A DNA stretch of 64,000 nt from positions 200,760 through 264,759 of the forward strand of contig JANQOU010000008.1 of the NCBI GenBank assembly GCA_028285585.1. Reading direction: 5' to 3'. Position numbers and translations under genes: made by a program. The notes under the pieces are model-generated. The model made no database searches. It worked only from the letters and a program-made list of their open reading frames with translations, and was not told where the DNA came from. Of this stretch, positions 28,757 through 49,666 are shown in pieces. The number at the start of each line of letters is the position of its first letter. Position 1 is the stretch's first letter. Source of the DNA: Acidimicrobiia bacterium. GTDB taxonomy: Bacteria > Actinomycetota > Acidimicrobiia > Spongiisociales > ZC4RG35.

Positions 28757-28935
28757 TTTAGGCCCACTCAGGAGTCAAGGGGGCAAAACCGCCTATTTGT
28801 GATGGGATTTCTGAACAGTCTCTTCGATCGGATTCCTTCGAGATGTGACGCCCTGTCGAATAGGGTATGCAACATGAGAATGGATCGAGGACGCTCGTGA
28901 CCTCTGCCGGGCCCGACGGTCAACCGCGGCAGATC

Positions 28936-29580
28936 ATGTCTGTCAGCCTCAAGGACCAGGTACTTGCCGGTCTGCGTGCAGGCCTCCTCAAGGGAGACTT
29001 CAAGCCAGGAAAGATCTACAAGATGGGGGAAGTCGGAGAGCAGTTTGGCGCATCCAGGACGCCCGTGAGGGAAGCTGTCCTGGAGCTCGAGTCACGAGGC
29101 GTCGTCGAGATAATCCGTAGCGTGGGGTTCCGTGTGACGGAGCCCACCCCAGACGACATCCAGGACATGTGGGAGGTCCGGGCGATCGTGGAAGTACCGG
29201 CAATGGAATCGCTGTCCGGCCGACTAGACGACTCGACGTTGGCCAAACTGTGGTCGCTGATCGACGACGTCGAGAAAGCAGCACGCTCCGATGACCTGGC
29301 AAGCTATCTCGCCAAAGACGCCCAGCTACATGACGCGCTCTACGAGGAGCTCTCCAACCGCCATCTCGCTGCGACCATTAGAGACCTTCGCGATTCGCAG
29401 CGGGTACCGAGCCTGGGAGCGCGACGAGCGTCCAGCGATTTGATCGCTCGCAATGAGGAGCACCGTGCATTGGTTGCGGCCATCGCATCCGGGGACACCG
29501 AGAAGATCCACAATCTGACTAGAGCCCACCTATTGGTGAACTACCACAAGTGGCAGAGTCAGAGCGATCACCGGGACTAG
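28936..29580 (+). CDS. GntR-family transcriptional regulator (FadR/FCD subfamily)
   Basis: N-terminal winged HTH (…LAGLRAGLLKGDFKPGKIYKMGEVGEQFGASRTPVREAV…) and a C-terminal all-helical FCD-like domain. The ATG at 28936 is preferred over the TTG at 28867. Confidence 0.8.
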   Translation: MSVSLKDQVLAGLRAGLLKGDFKPGKIYKMGEVGEQFGASRTPVREAVLELESRGVVEIIRSVGFRVTEPTPDDIQDMWEVRAIVEVPAMESLSGRLDDSTLAKLWSLIDDVEKAARSDDLASYLAKDAQLHDALYEELSNRHLAATIRDLRDSQRVPSLGARRASSDLIARNEEHRALVAAIASGDTEKIHNLTRAHLLVNYHKWQSQSDHRD

Positions 29581-31853: not shown

Positions 31854-31927
31854 TGGAGCTGACGGGATTTGAACCCGTGACCCCCTCGTTGCGAACGAGG
31901 TGCTCTGCCAGGCTGAGCTACAGCCCC
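31854..31927 (-). tRNA. tRNA-Ala (anticodon CGC)
   Basis: Folded by hand. Acceptor stem GGGGCTG/CAGCTCC with the G3:U70 Ala identity pair and discriminator A. D-stem GCTC/GAGC. Anticodon stem CCTCG/CGAGG with loop TTCGCAA. T-arm ACGGG-TTCAAAT-CCCGT. No encoded CCA. Confidence 0.9.
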
Positions 31928-31959: not shown

Positions 31960-32070
31960 CCTGAGGCGATTTGGACCGTATCTGGGCCGGTGCCCTGAAA
32001 GGGCGTGGAGTTTCTGGAAGAAACTCCAACCTGATTTCATCAGGCATTACCTGAGGTTGGTAGAGGGGGG
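31960..32070. repeat. Partial copies of the same repeat family next to tRNA-Ala
   Basis: CCTGAGGCGATTTGGACCGTATCTGGGCCG is the reverse complement of the 62.3-kb unit. ATTACCTGAGGTTGGTAGAGGGGGG is a direct copy of the 62328-62355 arm. It overlaps the translin-gene stop and precedes two small hairpins (CCTGAT…ATCAGG, GGAGTTTC…GAAACTCC). Confidence 0.65.
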
Positions 32071-42959: not shown

Positions 42960-42963
42960 CAGC

Positions 42964-43995
42964 TCAGAGCTGGAAGGTCTCCCACGGGTGATCTCCGGGC
43001 ACACCCCAGACGGCGCGCATCCTCCGTCTTGCCGGCTCCATGACAACTGCGCCACAGGTGGCGACATCGTGCGGATCGTCGGTGTGCTTGGAGATCCTCG
43101 GGTCTTTGAAGAACACCTCTGGAGATGCCGAGTTCGACCGGCCCAACTCGAGACGCAGCTCCGAGTCGGCTACATGCTCCGGCTCTCGGTATCCATGCTC
43201 GCGTGCCGTCTCGGGGTGGACACAGTGGTTCGAGTGAACAAACGGCTGCTCGACGACCATGGTGACCTCTTTCCGTTCCGGCATGGCCTCGATGTTGGCG
43301 CCACGACCGTCCGGCCCCATCACCATGAAGTTGTGGCCACCGGCCAGATCAGCCTCCATAACCACGTCAACAGCTGATTCGAAGTTGGTCTGCTGAAGGG
43401 CCTTCCTGACGACAAAAGGCCAGGTGACGCCGGGCCTGCCCACGGCGTTGAGATTGTTGATCCCGATCGAGATCCCGGCCTCGTTCATTCCCATCTGCCC
43501 GAGGCACCCGGCGGTGGTCTGCACGAGTGCGCTGGGCCCCATCAACGGGTCGAGTTTGAGCATGATCACGTACTCACCGGCCGACATGTGCATGTCCCAC
43601 GTCTGGGCGTAGAAGCCACCCTCGGGGTTGATCACGGCCGTGCAGTTGTGCTCGTCAGGTGCGCTGCCGACATGCCCTCTGACCACATCCACCACATCGG
43701 TGAAACCTCCGACAACCACAGCTTCCGCTTGGGTGACACCGGCAGCCTCCGCCATCGCCGTCATCTCGGCGAACAGGCTCTCCGAGTACCGCTCGTGATG
43801 AGGAAGGGTGGTCTCAGTCAACTCCAGGATCAGCTCGCGATCGACATCTCCACCACTCCAACGCTCCTGACCGGTGAGCCCGATCCGATCCTCCAGGTAC
43901 TTGCCGATCATGTCAGAGCAGGATTCGCCGTGACCACGGCCCAGATCGGACGAGTCGCCGAACACCTCGAGCAGCCTCAGTTCTCCTCCAAACAC
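42964..43995 (-). CDS. C45-family acyl-CoA:6-APA acyltransferase-like (autoproteolytic N-terminal-nucleophile hydrolase/acyltransferase)
   Basis: Length and the …HNCTA… putative Gly-Cys processing site resemble the isopenicillin-N acyltransferase (peptidase C45) family. Moderate confidence. Confidence 0.55.
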   Translation of the reverse strand: MFGGELRLLEVFGDSSDLGRGHGESCSDMIGKYLEDRIGLTGQERWSGGDVDRELILELTETTLPHHERYSESLFAEMTAMAEAAGVTQAEAVVVGGFTDVVDVVRGHVGSAPDEHNCTAVINPEGGFYAQTWDMHMSAGEYVIMLKLDPLMGPSALVQTTAGCLGQMGMNEAGISIGINNLNAVGRPGVTWPFVVRKALQQTNFESAVDVVMEADLAGGHNFMVMGPDGRGANIEAMPERKEVTMVVEQPFVHSNHCVHPETAREHGYREPEHVADSELRLELGRSNSASPEVFFKDPRISKHTDDPHDVATCGAVVMEPARRRMRAVWGVPGDHPWETFQL

Positions 43996-44025
43996 GACCT
44001 ACACGCTACTCAGCCGGCATTCGAA

Positions 44026-45165
44026 TCATCCCCGGCCGAGTTGGAAGTACTCGGTGTAGGCAGGCTCCACTGGTCCCGTGTAACGGAGACGATCGAGCGA
44101 GTCAGTGAGATCGGCGCTCGGGTACAAGACTTGATTGGCCACCAGGTCGGGAGAGATCAGGCCCTGAGCGGCGGCGTTCGGGCTGGCATGCCGACCCCAG
44201 TTGGCGAGCTCCGCCGCATTCTCGAGATCGAGAATGAAGTTGATGAACGCATGAGCCGTGCACCGGCTCTCGGCGGCAAGAGGAATCGTCATGCTGTCGA
44301 CCCAGAGAGTCCCGCCCTCGGCCGGGAACACAAACGAGACTGCGCTTCGATCGTCCTCGTCGTCGAGGCCTGCCAGGAAGTCGCCACCTCGAATCTGGGC
44401 CACGGCCAGCTCGCCGCTGATCAGCGACTCCATTTGCCCTTCGTCGCGGAACCTGACAGATCGATCGCGCGAGTCGGCGATGAGATCCGCTGCAGCGGCA
44501 AGCTCGCTCTCATCGGTGGTGTTGACCGAATGCCTGAGGTGGCGAAGCGCCCCTGCCATGGTCTCCCGCGCATTGTCGAGGAGGGCGAGACCTCCGGGCG
44601 ACTCGATCGCCGAGTCGAAGAAGACCGACCAGCTGATCGGCGACTCCTGAGAGACCAGAGCGTTGTTGATCGCCAACCCGGTCGTGCCCCACTGGAAGGC
44701 CGCCGAGTGGGCGCTTCCCGAGTCGAAGACGGGTTCCTCGAACGTCGCACCCAGGTTGGCGAAGTTGGGAAGAAGCCGGCGGTCGAGCCTGCTCAGATAT
44801 CCCTCGTCAACGAGACGCTCGACCACATGATCGGTGGCAATCACCACGTCGTACGAAGCTCCTGACTGAAGCTTCGCGTGCAGCGACTCGTTGGAGTCGT
44901 AGAAGTCCTCGATCACACGCACACCGAGCTCCTCCTCGAACCTGTCGAGGAGAGTCGTGGGCATCCGCGACTCCCGGTGATAGATGTGGAGGTTGCCGTC
45001 GGCTTCCCGCGCCTCGCACTCCAACGGGACCGTGGTGTCCACAGGCAAAGTCGCATCCACAGTGCCCGCGCCGCCGTCGGCCGGAGAACAGGCGGCGATG
45101 ACCAACGCTGCCGAAGCGATCAAGACGGCTCGCGAGAAAGCGATGCGCTTCACCAGATCTTCCAC
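44026..45165 (-). CDS. Spermidine/putrescine-type ABC substrate-binding lipoprotein (PotD/PotF-like), orphan
   Basis: Lipobox …VIAACS… and a PotD-like body. No cognate permease or ATPase is adjacent. Confidence 0.7.
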   Translation of the reverse strand: MEDLVKRIAFSRAVLIASAALVIAACSPADGGAGTVDATLPVDTTVPLECEAREADGNLHIYHRESRMPTTLLDRFEEELGVRVIEDFYDSNESLHAKLQSGASYDVVIATDHVVERLVDEGYLSRLDRRLLPNFANLGATFEEPVFDSGSAHSAAFQWGTTGLAINNALVSQESPISWSVFFDSAIESPGGLALLDNARETMAGALRHLRHSVNTTDESELAAAADLIADSRDRSVRFRDEGQMESLISGELAVAQIRGGDFLAGLDDEDDRSAVSFVFPAEGGTLWVDSMTIPLAAESRCTAHAFINFILDLENAAELANWGRHASPNAAAQGLISPDLVANQVLYPSADLTDSLDRLRYTGPVEPAYTEYFQLGRG

Positions 45166-45198
45166 ACTGCCACCTACGGTTTTCTAGCAGCCGCCCGC

Positions 45199-45270
45199 CG
45201 TTGCTATAGCAAGGCGTCGCGCTGAGCGACACGCGTTGCTATAGCAAGGGGTCGCGTCAGGCGACACGCG
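45199..45270. repeat. Two tandem 35-bp direct repeats, each carrying the palindrome TTGCTATAGCAA and GTCGC-N5-GCGAC
   Basis: Seen directly: CGTTGCTATAGCAAGGCGTCGCGCTGAGCGACACG followed by CGTTGCTATAGCAAGGGGTCGCGTCAGGCGACACG. They lie in the divergent region between the PotD-like gene and the aminotransferase gene. Confidence 0.8.
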
Positions 45271-45309
45271 GTGCACGCGCGATGATGCGCGCAGTTAGCC
45301 TCCACCGCC

Positions 45310-46548
45310 ATGACCTCCTTCTGGCACCCGTTTGCGGAGATGAGCAAGGTGAAGACAGCCCCCTTCATCATCGACCGCGGGGAAGACATCTACGTCTACG
45401 ACGAGCAGGGCAATCGCTATCTCGATGCTGCCGCCTCCCTCTGGTACATGAACATCGGATACGGGCGGGATGAAGTGATCGACGCCATGGACCGTCAGAT
45501 GCGGAAGCTGCCGGCCTTTCACGCCTTCGTCGACTACGGCACCAGGCCGCCGATGGATCTAGCGGCGAAGATCGCTTCGGTGTCCCCGGATCCCGACTCG
45601 AAGGTCTTCTTCGGCTCCGGAGGCTCGGACGCCATCGACACCGCAGCCAAGATGGCGCGTCGCTACTTCAACGCCATCGGCCAGCCCGAGCGCACCATCT
45701 TCATCGCCAGGGAGTGGGCTTACCACGGCATGCACAGCTACGGCACCGCCCTCGGCGGCATGGAGCAGAATCGTCTCGGGTATGGAGGCGACCTCGTCTC
45801 CGACGTCGTGATGGTCCCCTACGACGACGCCGAAGCCGTGGAGAAGGCGATCGATCACGCCGGAGCAGACCGGGTCGCCGGCATCTTCGTGGAAGCCGTC
45901 ATCGGTGCCGGCGGGATCCGGCCGGTCAGCGAGGACTACCTGAGGACGGTGCGCCAATCGATCCGAGACGCCGGAGCTCTCTACATCTCGGACGAGGTGA
46001 TCACCGGCTTCGGCCGTGCCGGCGACTGGTTCGCCGCGGGCAGGTTCGGGCTGGAACCAGATCTGATGACCTTTGCCAAAGGTGTCACCTGCGGATACGC
46101 CCCTCTGGGCGGCGTTGTCGCCGCAAGTCACATCGCGGAGCCCTTCTTCTCCCAACCCGGCCTCATGTTCCGCCATGGCTACACGTACTCGGGCCACTCG
46201 ACGGCCTGTGCGGCCGGCATCGTCGTGATGGACATCATCGAACGAGAGGGACTGCTCGAGCGTGCCCGCCAGCTCGAAGGAGAGATGTACGAGGCGCTCC
46301 TCCCTTTGGAGGCCTTGGATGTCGTCGACCATGTGAGACGCGGAGTGGGTGCTCTCACCGCGGTTCAGTTGGAGGTCGGCGAAGACGAGACATTGCCCGG
46401 CCGAGCCGCGGCTGCTTGCAGGAAGGCCGGCGTCCTCACCCGGGCGATGGGCAACGGTGCCTTGCAAGTCTCCCCTCCCCTGACGATGACTCCTGATCAG
46501 GTCAAGGAGATGGCCGGCCTGTTCGACACGGGTCTCCGCAGCCTGTGA
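45310..46548 (+). CDS. Class-III (omega) aminotransferase, PLP-dependent
   Basis: AT-III motifs …FGSGGSDAIDTA…, …DEVITGFGRAG… and …TFAKGVTCGY… (PLP-Lys). Confidence 0.85.
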   Translation: MTSFWHPFAEMSKVKTAPFIIDRGEDIYVYDEQGNRYLDAAASLWYMNIGYGRDEVIDAMDRQMRKLPAFHAFVDYGTRPPMDLAAKIASVSPDPDSKVFFGSGGSDAIDTAAKMARRYFNAIGQPERTIFIAREWAYHGMHSYGTALGGMEQNRLGYGGDLVSDVVMVPYDDAEAVEKAIDHAGADRVAGIFVEAVIGAGGIRPVSEDYLRTVRQSIRDAGALYISDEVITGFGRAGDWFAAGRFGLEPDLMTFAKGVTCGYAPLGGVVAASHIAEPFFSQPGLMFRHGYTYSGHSTACAAGIVVMDIIEREGLLERARQLEGEMYEALLPLEALDVVDHVRRGVGALTAVQLEVGEDETLPGRAAAACRKAGVLTRAMGNGALQVSPPLTMTPDQVKEMAGLFDTGLRSL

Positions 46549-46630
46549 GGTAGAGCTGACGAAACAGTCTGTCGGCGATCCGACACAGAGCTCACACCCG
46601 CCGGCGTTGGACACGACGTAGGCTCGACCT

Positions 46631-47017
46631 GTGACCGAAGCCTGGCGTCATCGCCTGTTCCTCAGTGCCCCATTCGTTGCCATCGGCGCACTGGCGTTGG
46701 TGACGCCGTCTGAAGACGGTCTAACCGTTTGCCCCTTTGCCTTGTGCACGGGCTCGGCTTGCCCGGGTTGCGGGATGACTCGGGCAGCTTCCAGCCTGAT
46801 TCGCGGTGACTTCTCCGGGGCGATGTTCTATCACCCGCTGGTGCTGCTGATCGGGGCCCAGGCATTGGCCGGGTGGATCTGGTACCTGCTGCGCAGAACC
46901 GGCCGCGTAGGGCCGGTGAATCAAACGACGCTGACCGTCATCCTTGCGATCACCGCAGTCGCGTTGGTTGCAGTCTGGGTTGCTCGACTGGTGTCGGGGA
47001 CGCTGCCTCCGGTCTGA
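46631..47017 (+). CDS. DUF2752-family membrane protein
   Basis: CPFALCTGSACPGCGMTRA motif characteristic of DUF2752. Confidence 0.65.
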   Translation: MTEAWRHRLFLSAPFVAIGALALVTPSEDGLTVCPFALCTGSACPGCGMTRAASSLIRGDFSGAMFYHPLVLLIGAQALAGWIWYLLRRTGRVGPVNQTTLTVILAITAVALVAVWVARLVSGTLPPV

Positions 47018-48898: not shown

Positions 48899-48964
48899 GC
48901 GATCCCTACTGCAAGGTTCTTAGGAGACTTTGAAAACTATAGTTTTGGGCAGGGAGTATCCCGT

Positions 48965-49666
48965 ATGGACGTCAAGACACTCGATTCTCGGATCTCAGAT
49001 CTCACCGCATCGCTCGGTGACTCCACCAGACGCGCCATCTACATCGCCGTTCGCGAGTCCGCTGAGCCGCTGACCACCTCCGAGGTGGCCAAGCTGTTCG
49101 ACATCCATGCCAACGTCGCCCGCCATCACCTAGACCGCCTCGCCGACGACGGCTACGTACAGGTGAGCCATCGGCCCAGTGCCAACCAGGGTGCGGGACG
49201 GCCCGCCAAGACCTACGAGGCAACCTCCAAGGAAGTCACGGTCCACTTCGCTCCACGACGGTTCGAGATGCTCACCGAAATGTTGTTCCAGGTGCTCGAG
49301 GAGGTGGCACCAGAGAACGTCTCCGAGGTCGCGGAGAATGTGGGGCGAAGCTACGGAGAGAAACTGGCATCAGAGATAGGCGCACCCGAAGAACCTGGAT
49401 ACGACGACGCAGTCCAGGCGGTGGCCAGCGCCATGACGGGCCTGGGCTTCTCCGTCGACCCCGACGTCCCCGGACAGCGGCTTCTCACTTCGCATTGCCC
49501 CTTCGGCGAGAGCGCCACCAACCATCCCGAGGTGATCTGCTCGCTCGATCGCGGGATAGTCGCCGGTCTGTTTGGCGCCCTCTCCTTCGACTGCAACCCG
49601 GTGGTGATCCCTCACAAAGCCTTGGATGACGATTGCGTCACCCAAGTCCCAGTGACAATCGGCTGA
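48965..49666 (+). CDS. Winged-helix transcriptional regulator (ArsR/DeoR-like N-terminal HTH)
   Basis: N-terminal …TRRAIYIAVRESAEPLTTSEVAKLFDIHANVARHHLDRLADDGYV… HTH. Only the C-terminal 233 codons of annotated ORF 47816-49666 are taken as real. Confidence 0.6.
   Translation: MDVKTLDSRISDLTASLGDSTRRAIYIAVRESAEPLTTSEVAKLFDIHANVARHHLDRLADDGYVQVSHRPSANQGAGRPAKTYEATSKEVTVHFAPRRFEMLTEMLFQVLEEVAPENVSEVAENVGRSYGEKLASEIGAPEEPGYDDAVQAVASAMTGLGFSVDPDVPGQRLLTSHCPFGESATNHPEVICSLDRGIVAGLFGALSFDCNPVVIPHKALDDDCVTQVPVTIG

Follow-up and report, generated by a model that had tools for sequence, protein, structure and literature searches.

The tandem repeat at 45199–45270 of the window, which is the whole stretch of 64,000 nucleotides of marine Acidimicrobiia DNA analysed here, is probably one copy of a dispersed palindromic element resembling the REPIN and TRIT elements. 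The element is likely to consist of two perfect copies of a 12-bp palindrome, TTGCTATAGCAA (hereafter P), placed exactly 23 nt apart, with a GC-rich and roughly self-complementary spacer between them (P-N23-P, about 47–55 bp). The copy in the window appears to carry a slipped extra half-unit, namely a second spacer, and thus resembles two tandem 35-bp repeats.

The two 35-bp units are located head-to-tail at 45199–45233 and 45234–45268, and they are 86% identical. TRF analysis gave a period of 35 with 2.2 copies and a score of 115 over the span 45199–45274. Each unit contains P and the inverted repeat GTCGC-N5-GCGAC (hereafter H), as the sequence-only reading had described. In the 64-kb window, P and H are each found only in these two units, with two matches to P at up to two mismatches (0.39 expected) and two matches to H (0.42 expected). 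When the search of the window was relaxed to three mismatches, nothing above chance was detected. The two units differ at five positions, one base of the spacer and the four that make up the 4-nt loop core. The loop core is CTGA in unit 1 and TCAG in unit 2, and these are mutual reverse complements. In addition, P1-H1-P2 forms a 53-bp imperfect palindrome whose 26-nt arms are 85% complementary, and the unit junctions have the common microhomology CG(T/G)TGC.

According to the covariance model match and the arm complementarity, the part common to the dispersed family is the core element P1-spacer(H1)-P2 with short flanks (45195–45253), to which no strand is assigned. P1 (45201–45212) is kept in the contigs L006, L017 and L018 of the same species, and the bases on either side of it vary. 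The 23-nt spacer 1 (45213–45235) contains the hairpin H1 (GTCGC GCTGA GCGAC, 45216–45230) and agrees with the consensus of the family spacers at 13 of 23 positions. P2 (45236–45247) is 35 bp from P1, corresponding to N=23 as in nine high-GC loci described below. The second spacer copy (45248–45270), with the hairpin H2 (GTCGC GTCAG GCGAC, 45251–45265), is identical to spacer 1 at 18 of 23 positions and folds as its own hairpin, with the loop core reverse-complemented relative to H1. This extra half-unit was not seen in the other family members. The following 12 nt (GTGCACGCGCGA, 45271–45282) might conceivably represent a decayed third P, as a by-eye count gives 6/12 matches to P, which is not significant alone, and the TRF array reaches 45274.

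Breaks of assembly are observed inside the repeat. Among the Logan assemblies, L001 starts at 45220, L007 starts at 45251, and L017 and L018 end at 45244, so that four independent breaks are counted. Short-read assemblies break at the element in this locus, a pattern that points to micro-diversity or to graph problems due to the palindromes. It is possible that the copy number of the 35-bp unit varies in the population.

The motif was searched for elsewhere using two patterns, P followed by GTCGC..GCGAC, and P-N{10,40}-P. Using the first pattern, four matches were detected in 185,579 species genomes, and no match was detected in the JGI metagenomes and IMG/VR; evidently, none of these collections contains the source species. 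The four matches (L008, L009, L010 and L011) are all from rumen Lachnospiraceae and lie at the 3' end of an IS66-type element, and they were set aside as one independent chance match. In these contigs, the 3' end of the transposase gene and the terminal region contain TTGCTATAGCAAGCGTCGCAAATAAGCGAC, and the element end GTAAGCGTCAAATCC comes after it. The second pattern gave 46 metagenome loci and four viral loci. Most of these are low-GC tandem or inverted repeats that contain P by chance, and they were not counted. Any tandem or inverted repeat with one P gives two copies; thus the 46 matches were not accepted as 46 independent events, and only the high-GC class with N=23 was used. This class comprises nine loci (GC 0.58–0.66), all of which have exactly N=23 like the window and a GC-rich, hairpin-like spacer. 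Three of the nine were typed (L027, L065 and L026), and all three are from Acidimicrobiia. The samples with family matches are of marine, soil and wetland types. The copies L044 and L061 are probably on one 59-kb soil contig.

A covariance model was built from ten other loci (the nine high-GC loci and L072), with the window excluded. The model matches the window at full length over 45195–45253 with 59.1 bits (E about 5e-13), much of this score coming from P and the spacer adding its 13/23 consensus match, and the next best match in 168 kb of Acidimicrobiia DNA has 13 bits. Over 432 kb of loci, the family model R1 detected only copies with two perfect P and no diverged ones; because two perfect P were required, the family sample is biased, and variants of P would have been missed. 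No stand-alone P-like site with up to two mismatches was detected in the Acidimicrobiia loci checked in a mismatch-tolerant manner, the ferredoxin and aroG relatives being checked separately. The 64-kb window contains one copy, and scans of the other relatives' loci using the family models detected no further copy. The element thus appears sparse in the DNA examined, at roughly 0–2 copies per 60 kb, and this low apparent copy number speaks against the dispersed-element reading.

The family consensus gave no match by BLAST against the PLSDB plasmids and the INPHARED phages. Phage contigs with several P copies show other spacings and AT-rich contexts, and they were treated as unrelated. Arrays of TTGCTATAGCAA with near-variants TTCTATAGCAA and A/T-rich flanks are present in low-GC phage or phage-like contigs (L067 at 2609–2915, L021, L032, L045 and L066), and L067 has six TTGCTATAGCAA copies in about 300 bp. 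These arrays resemble the operators or iterons of an unrelated system. In Rfam 15, only a tRNA reaches the gathering score in the window, and nothing meaningful was detected at E up to 10 for 45100–45400 or at E up to 1 for four family loci. A full-text literature search for TTGCTATAGCAA gave only irrelevant eukaryotic or oligonucleotide matches. The motif is new to Rfam 15, PLSDB, INPHARED and the literature searched under the P sequence.

The comparison of L027 and L072 indicates which part of the element is constrained. The two elements are located in the same place between aroG and osmC, and the DAHP synthases are 91% identical. The P copies agree at 24 of 24 positions, whereas the spacers agree at 13 of 23 (16 of 23 if one is inverted) and the next 18 nt agree at only 8 of 18. 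As L072 was retrieved via its protein, the comparison is not biased towards P. These results indicate that P is under sequence constraint while the spacer and the flank drift. In L070, the third aroG relative, P is lost and only a decayed remnant is left. At about 5050–5160 of L070 and L071, where P is absent, the element-like fragments GCCAACGTG..TTTCCGAG..CGTAGCAA are present and the DAHP synthase is five residues longer; these fragments look like a decayed copy. The block CTAGTGTCGGTCGACCCCCACCC.GAGGAATCATCATG upstream of osmC (on the reverse strand of L027, at 5075–5126 of L072, and in L070) is invariant at 37 of 38 positions, and the preceding 18 nt are scrambled. This block is probably the osmC promoter, with TAGTGT as the -10 box, together with the ribosome-binding site.

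Across the nine high-GC loci, P is perfect and the spacing is fixed in both marine and soil lineages, and the palindrome of P reaches 14–16 bp in several copies. No substitution between the two units or between strains falls in P or in the H stems. That P and the spacing do not vary across these lineages argues for sequence-specific recognition of P, and since P itself is palindromic, the recogniser is probably a symmetric factor. The spacers behave differently. Across loci within a lineage they are identical at 17–23 of 23 positions (L026, L044, L061, L064 and L065; L027 and L056; L029 and L054), and between lineages they are unlike, which argues that the module spread as a unit. The presence of homologous spacers at loci that are not themselves homologous likewise argues for the copying of P-N23-P as a whole from place to place in genomes. 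The pairing of the long hairpin is kept in 88.7% of cells. Sliding the partner column lowers this value to 30–49%, and in eight pairs both sides have changed. In the marine copies L027 and L072, the spacer pairing is imperfect, with 7–8 non-Watson–Crick pairs of 25. The loop core of H2 (45256–45259) is the reverse complement of that of H1 (45221–45224), and the L072 spacer fits that of L027 better when inverted. These two observations suggest flipping of the palindrome centre, as template switching in hairpins would produce.

The family copies are located beside unrelated housekeeping genes, including mdh/FG-GAP, DUF2207/methyltransferase, aconitase/acyltransferase, LPG synthase/SHOCT, rpoA, ferredoxin, DAHP synthase and histidine phosphatase genes. 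Five of the nine loci are convergent, two are co-directional, and two have no assigned context; the divergent context is found only for the copy in the window. In seven loci, stop codons come 3–15 nt from the element; in L027 and L072, the TAG that ends the DAHP synthase gene falls within P1 itself. The convergent loci L061, L044 and L064 have a stop codon on both sides of the element, at a distance of 3–13 nt. Ten element-less contigs of the ferredoxin locus have a small hairpin followed by TTTT in the same place as the element in L026. In L054, a separate canonical terminator is located immediately beside the element. By-eye inspection of the family copies showed no target-site duplications around them, and no transposase or RAYT gene is present among the annotated genes of the window and the element neighbours. 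The only adjoining regulator genes seen in these contexts (TetR in L070 and L071, HTH_20 in L070–L072) are either at loci without the element or kept regardless of it. A 21-bp tandem repeat (attctctatggggcgaacccc, at least three copies, 1202–1290) directly follows the element downstream of rpoA in L029. In L026 past about nt 776, the carboxyltransferase frame that comes after the element resembles its orthologue over about 65 residues only, and an ORF with a Clp_N domain is present on the opposite strand; this part corresponds to a rearrangement or a chimeric metagenome contig.

From these features, the following course can be proposed. The module would have spread as a unit, like a REPIN or another miniature mobile element. 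P would be recognised by a conserved symmetric factor, which may be a mobilising enzyme or a binder of the P duplex, the P duplex being identical in linear DNA and in the folded hairpin stem. At its usual sites, the hairpin of roughly 25 bp would probably act as a bidirectional 3'-end element (a terminator or an RNA stabiliser), like TRIT. The copy in the window would have landed in, or been retained in, a divergent promoter region, where it probably gained the extra half-unit by slippage between the 16-bp direct repeats CGTTGCTATAGCAAGG; a third P (45271–45282) may since have decayed. As this copy is located between divergent gene starts and not at 3' ends, a terminator role makes little sense there. 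Effects on the flanking genes would be secondary, for example through occupancy by the P factor or through a hairpin in the 5' UTR of the binding-protein gene.

The copy in the window is located between a PotD-like solute-binding lipoprotein gene on the minus strand (44026–45165, Pfam SBP_bac_8/6) and a class-III aminotransferase gene on the plus strand (45310–46548, Pfam Aminotran_3, E = 3e-77), in agreement with the sequence-only reading. The named homologues of the aminotransferase are from Acidimicrobiia. Further out on the binding-protein side, the cluster has genes for a C45/AAT-like protein, an arginase-family enzyme and an MFS transporter. The earlier statement that no regulator gene is adjacent holds for the immediate neighbours, and the nearest HTH genes encode an HTH_20 protein (48926–49666) and a GntR/FCD regulator (28867–29580). 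The HTH_20 gene is kept in relatives without the repeat. The GntR/FCD regulator was considered as a candidate for the P binder and was rejected, its own upstream region being without a P-like or H-like site.

The motif TAGCCTC is located 6–8 nt before the ATG of the aminotransferase gene, and it is the only upstream motif of this gene conserved in all the relatives. Between the motif and the ATG, no Shine–Dalgarno sequence is present in the window (45296–45309) and in L002, L003, L004, L012, L013 and L014. According to the actinobacterial TANNNT consensus, TAGCCT (45296–45301, plus strand) is probably the -10 box of a leaderless mRNA. On the plus strand of the intergenic region, only TAGCCT and TACGGT (45175–45180) fit TANNNT; TACGGT is at the far end, adjoining the start of the binding-protein gene, and only TAGCCT is suitably placed for the aminotransferase ATG. 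The aminotransferase mRNA is thus probably leaderless or nearly so, with a conserved promoter next to the ATG. The repeat ends 26 bp upstream of the putative -10 box. On the minus strand, the binding-protein gene has the Shine–Dalgarno sequence AGGTGG (45170–45175), read from the sequence 4 nt before the GTG start, and no TANNNT -10 box for this gene was found on the minus strand in 45150–45330. A sigma-70 promoter consensus scan of the intergenic region gave no match. A terminator scan of 44900–45500 detected no terminator, and the hairpin has no T-tract after it.

Neither a permease nor an ATPase gene for the PotD-like protein was found in the window. The dN/dS of the binding-protein gene against L006 is 0.23, and by this measure the gene is live and under purifying selection. 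Compared with the protein at the corresponding position in L003, the identity is 44%, whereas the neighbouring genes reach 78% and 84%, which indicates that this side of the intergenic region was replaced or has diverged fast. No homologue of more than 45% identity was found outside the species. The PotD-like protein appears to be an orphan binding protein, either fast-diverged or replaced. Differences in gene content are observed around the locus. The region from the arginase-family gene to the aminotransferase gene (window 42960–45310; L002 5434–9956, L004 7191–9956, L013 441–2125) is a gene-content hot spot, which contains GNAT, MarR, Rce1-like, GT4, DUF2652 and GrpB genes among the relatives, with the binding-protein gene present or absent. 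In the relatives L002 (11236–12507), L003 (5731–7005), L012 and L013, the aminotransferase gene is followed by a gene for a DAO/FAD oxidoreductase of 423–424 aa with overlapping stop and start codons; in the window (46548–46631) this gene is missing, and a DUF2752 gene (46631–47017) comes directly after the aminotransferase gene. On a larger scale, a tRNA gene on the minus strand (31854–31927) divides the window. The GC content at the third codon position is 0.62–0.74 below it (1–31500) and 0.78–0.83 for most genes at 32000–64000. The part 1–31500 may be a compositional island rich in ABC-transporter and catabolic genes, including the GntR/FCD regulator gene at 28867–29580.

The sequence-only reading had regarded the repeat as an operator of the polyamine-type cluster. 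In this explanation, P1 and P2 are bound cooperatively, 3.3 helical turns apart, by a trans-acting dimer-of-dimers regulator that controls the divergent promoters, and the other loci would be further sites of the same, possibly global, regulator. Several features agree with it. P is a perfect 12-bp palindrome that extends to 14–16 bp in several copies, and the drift seen in the remaining sequence spares both P and the 35-bp spacing. The copy in the window lies in the promoter region, with P1 36 bp from the start of the binding-protein gene and P2 48 bp from the putative -10 box of the aminotransferase gene. In L027 and L072, the element is just upstream of the conserved promoter-like block of osmC. 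The region is also conserved within the species. The element is kept in the same-species contigs L006, L017 and L018, in which the aminotransferase (L006) is 99% identical to that in the window and the binding protein (L017 and L018) is 97% identical, and a near-identical contig was found from Tara Oceans. In the intergenic region, these contigs show only two substitutions, one on each side of P1. The 144-bp intergenic region thus has two differences within the species, versus about ten expected from the synonymous divergence of the flanking genes (dS 0.06–0.085). This conservation beyond synonymous sites leaves room for a local regulatory effect.

Against an operator stand the other loci and the relatives. 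The five strictly convergent loci have stop codons 3–15 nt away on both sides or terminators alongside, and in such contexts an operator has nothing to regulate. Spacers homologous between unrelated loci point to copying of a module and not to operator evolution, and they are not expected of operators that evolved independently. The DNA checked yielded neither single nor imperfect P sites at other places, and neither the window nor the other contexts inspected showed a linked regulator gene. Eight relatives (L002, L003, L004, L012, L013 and L014–16), whose aminotransferases are 83–85% identical to that in the window, have no P, and their upstream regions, and often their upstream genes too, are unrelated to those of the window. 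The orthologous clusters of these relatives work without P, and the module is found beside unrelated genes. These results do not agree with an operator evolved for the polyamine-type cluster, and we consider an operator pair unlikely. What stands of the earlier proposal is that P acts like a recognition site, being kept while its surroundings drift, with the 35-bp spacing fixed in nine loci. The conservation of P and the fixed spacing fit a symmetric factor acting in trans, probably a protein, as had been presumed, whereas a control owned by the cluster is not supported.

The earlier alternative, that the repeat encodes a structured 5' leader or a riboswitch-like RNA of the binding-protein or the aminotransferase mRNA, is likewise unsupported. 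The repeat folds stably on either strand (-61 and -57 kcal/mol, z about -2.2), and the 5' UTR of the binding-protein gene may include the element, as no -10 box was located for that gene. On the other hand, the aminotransferase mRNA appears leaderless, no Rfam match was obtained for the repeat even at E = 10, and the family copies are located behind unrelated genes. The counts of G-U and A-C pairs, sense versus antisense, are symmetric (9 versus 7) and give no sign of a strand-specific RNA. We therefore regard a leader RNA as very improbable. Furthermore, a pure RNA-hairpin model leaves the palindromy and the conservation of P unexplained. A neutral tandem duplication of a 35-bp stretch with chance palindromes, having neither function nor relatives, would account for the exact 35-bp register, the junction microhomology CG(T/G)TGC and the restriction of the repeat to one species at this locus, but it is highly unlikely, as the same P, the 23-nt spacing and similar spacers recur in other Acidimicrobiia, the substitutions avoid P and the H stems, and the chance of the family spacing is about 1 in 31.

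Returning to the dispersed element, we put forward only tentatively that P-N23-P is an undescribed element system of Acidimicrobiia, present in marine as well as in soil or wetland lineages, in which a putative conserved protein recognises the TTGCTATAGCAA duplex, such as a domesticated transposase or a factor for bidirectional termination. If this is the case, a putative domesticated transposase would maintain a small REPIN-like population. Alternatively, the hairpins would be sequence-specific, factor-assisted bidirectional terminators, a role that has long been suspected for the mycobacterial TRITs but is not known to have been shown. Acidimicrobiia are abundant in oceans and soils. To our knowledge, they are almost unstudied genetically, and classical terminators are mostly lacking in them. 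A P kept letter-perfect at gene ends would give a handle on how transcripts end or are protected in Acidimicrobiia, or on a small, long-lived mobile-element system outside Proteobacteria. For annotation, the present case warns that a striking palindrome pair does not necessarily serve the adjoining genes as an operator, even where it lies in a promoter region.

The element was compared with known systems. Integron attC sites have the boxes RYYYAAC ... GTTRRRY around an imperfect palindrome. By inspection, GTTGCTA and TAGCAAC fit neither GTTRRRY nor RYYYAAC, and attC was rejected. The ClgR box (CGC-N5-GCG), the NrdR box, and the LacI-type and FNR-type sites were also rejected, as none of their consensus sequences fits in a by-eye comparison. 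Tandem palindromic operators for dimers of dimers are exemplified by paired NrdR boxes about three turns apart and by operators of the TetR/IclR type. Like these, P-N23-P has two identical, conserved palindromes about 3.3 turns apart with a free spacer. It differs from them in that the spacer is homologous between loci and self-complementary, in that most sites are located at gene 3' ends or between convergent genes, and in that no linked regulator was found. The palindromes lie in a promoter region in the window, but they are not conserved upstream of orthologues or in a regulon; they are absent in the eight relatives, and the other copies are behind unrelated genes, mostly in places without a promoter.

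Hairpin-only ('I-shaped') intrinsic terminators without a U-tract occur in Actinobacteria. P-N23-P resembles them in forming a strong GC-rich hairpin directly after a stop codon with no T-run, and in L026 the element takes the place of a small canonical terminator-like hairpin. It is unlike them in that its sequence is conserved between genes and lineages, whereas ordinary terminators, as far as we know, share no conserved sequence between genes or lineages. A canonical intrinsic terminator, a GC-rich hairpin followed by a T-run, was not detected in the scan of 44900–45500.

REP/RAYT systems are known mainly from Proteobacteria; the elements number dozens to hundreds in a genome, and the cognate RAYT (Y1 transposase) gene is single-copy and as a rule has REPs at its sides. 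The REP and REPIN elements are mobilised by RAYT transposases (PMC3116915, PMC3337134, PMC2817692). Both these elements and P-N23-P are extragenic palindromic hairpin modules at unrelated loci, inherited vertically over long periods, with lineage-specific sequence variants and a conserved recognised part. A dispersed imperfect-palindrome hairpin is found here at ten independent loci with unrelated neighbours, with its pairing kept at 88.7%. P-N23-P differs in that the family consensus (GCGTTGCTATAGCAA...) has no GTAG head tetranucleotide, in that no RAYT gene was seen among the annotated neighbours, in that the element is much shorter than typical REPINs, and in that the apparent copy number is low.

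TRIT, the 'Tuberculosis Rho-independent terminator' motif of Mycobacterium (Gardner et al. 2011, PMC3152330), is a sequence-conserved, palindromic and bidirectional motif, centred around -8 from stop codons and confined to one lineage or genus, with 147 copies per genome, and its authors proposed a factor that recognises the conserved duplex (PMC3152330). P-N23-P differs in that the sequences are unrelated and the host is Acidimicrobiia, TRIT being set apart here by its published description as a motif confined to its genus. It has, in addition, two internal perfect sub-palindromes at a fixed distance and appears sparse, its terminator role is only predicted, and the copy in the window is in a divergent promoter region. 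In other respects the two correspond. The usual location of the P-N23-P copies, close against stop codons and between convergent genes, agrees with REP-type elements, and the agreement with TRIT is particularly good. Both are dispersed, conserved in sequence and in structure, palindromic, bidirectional and found in one actinobacterial lineage, and the P-N23-P family, like TRIT, is bound in position to stop codons and often overlaps them.
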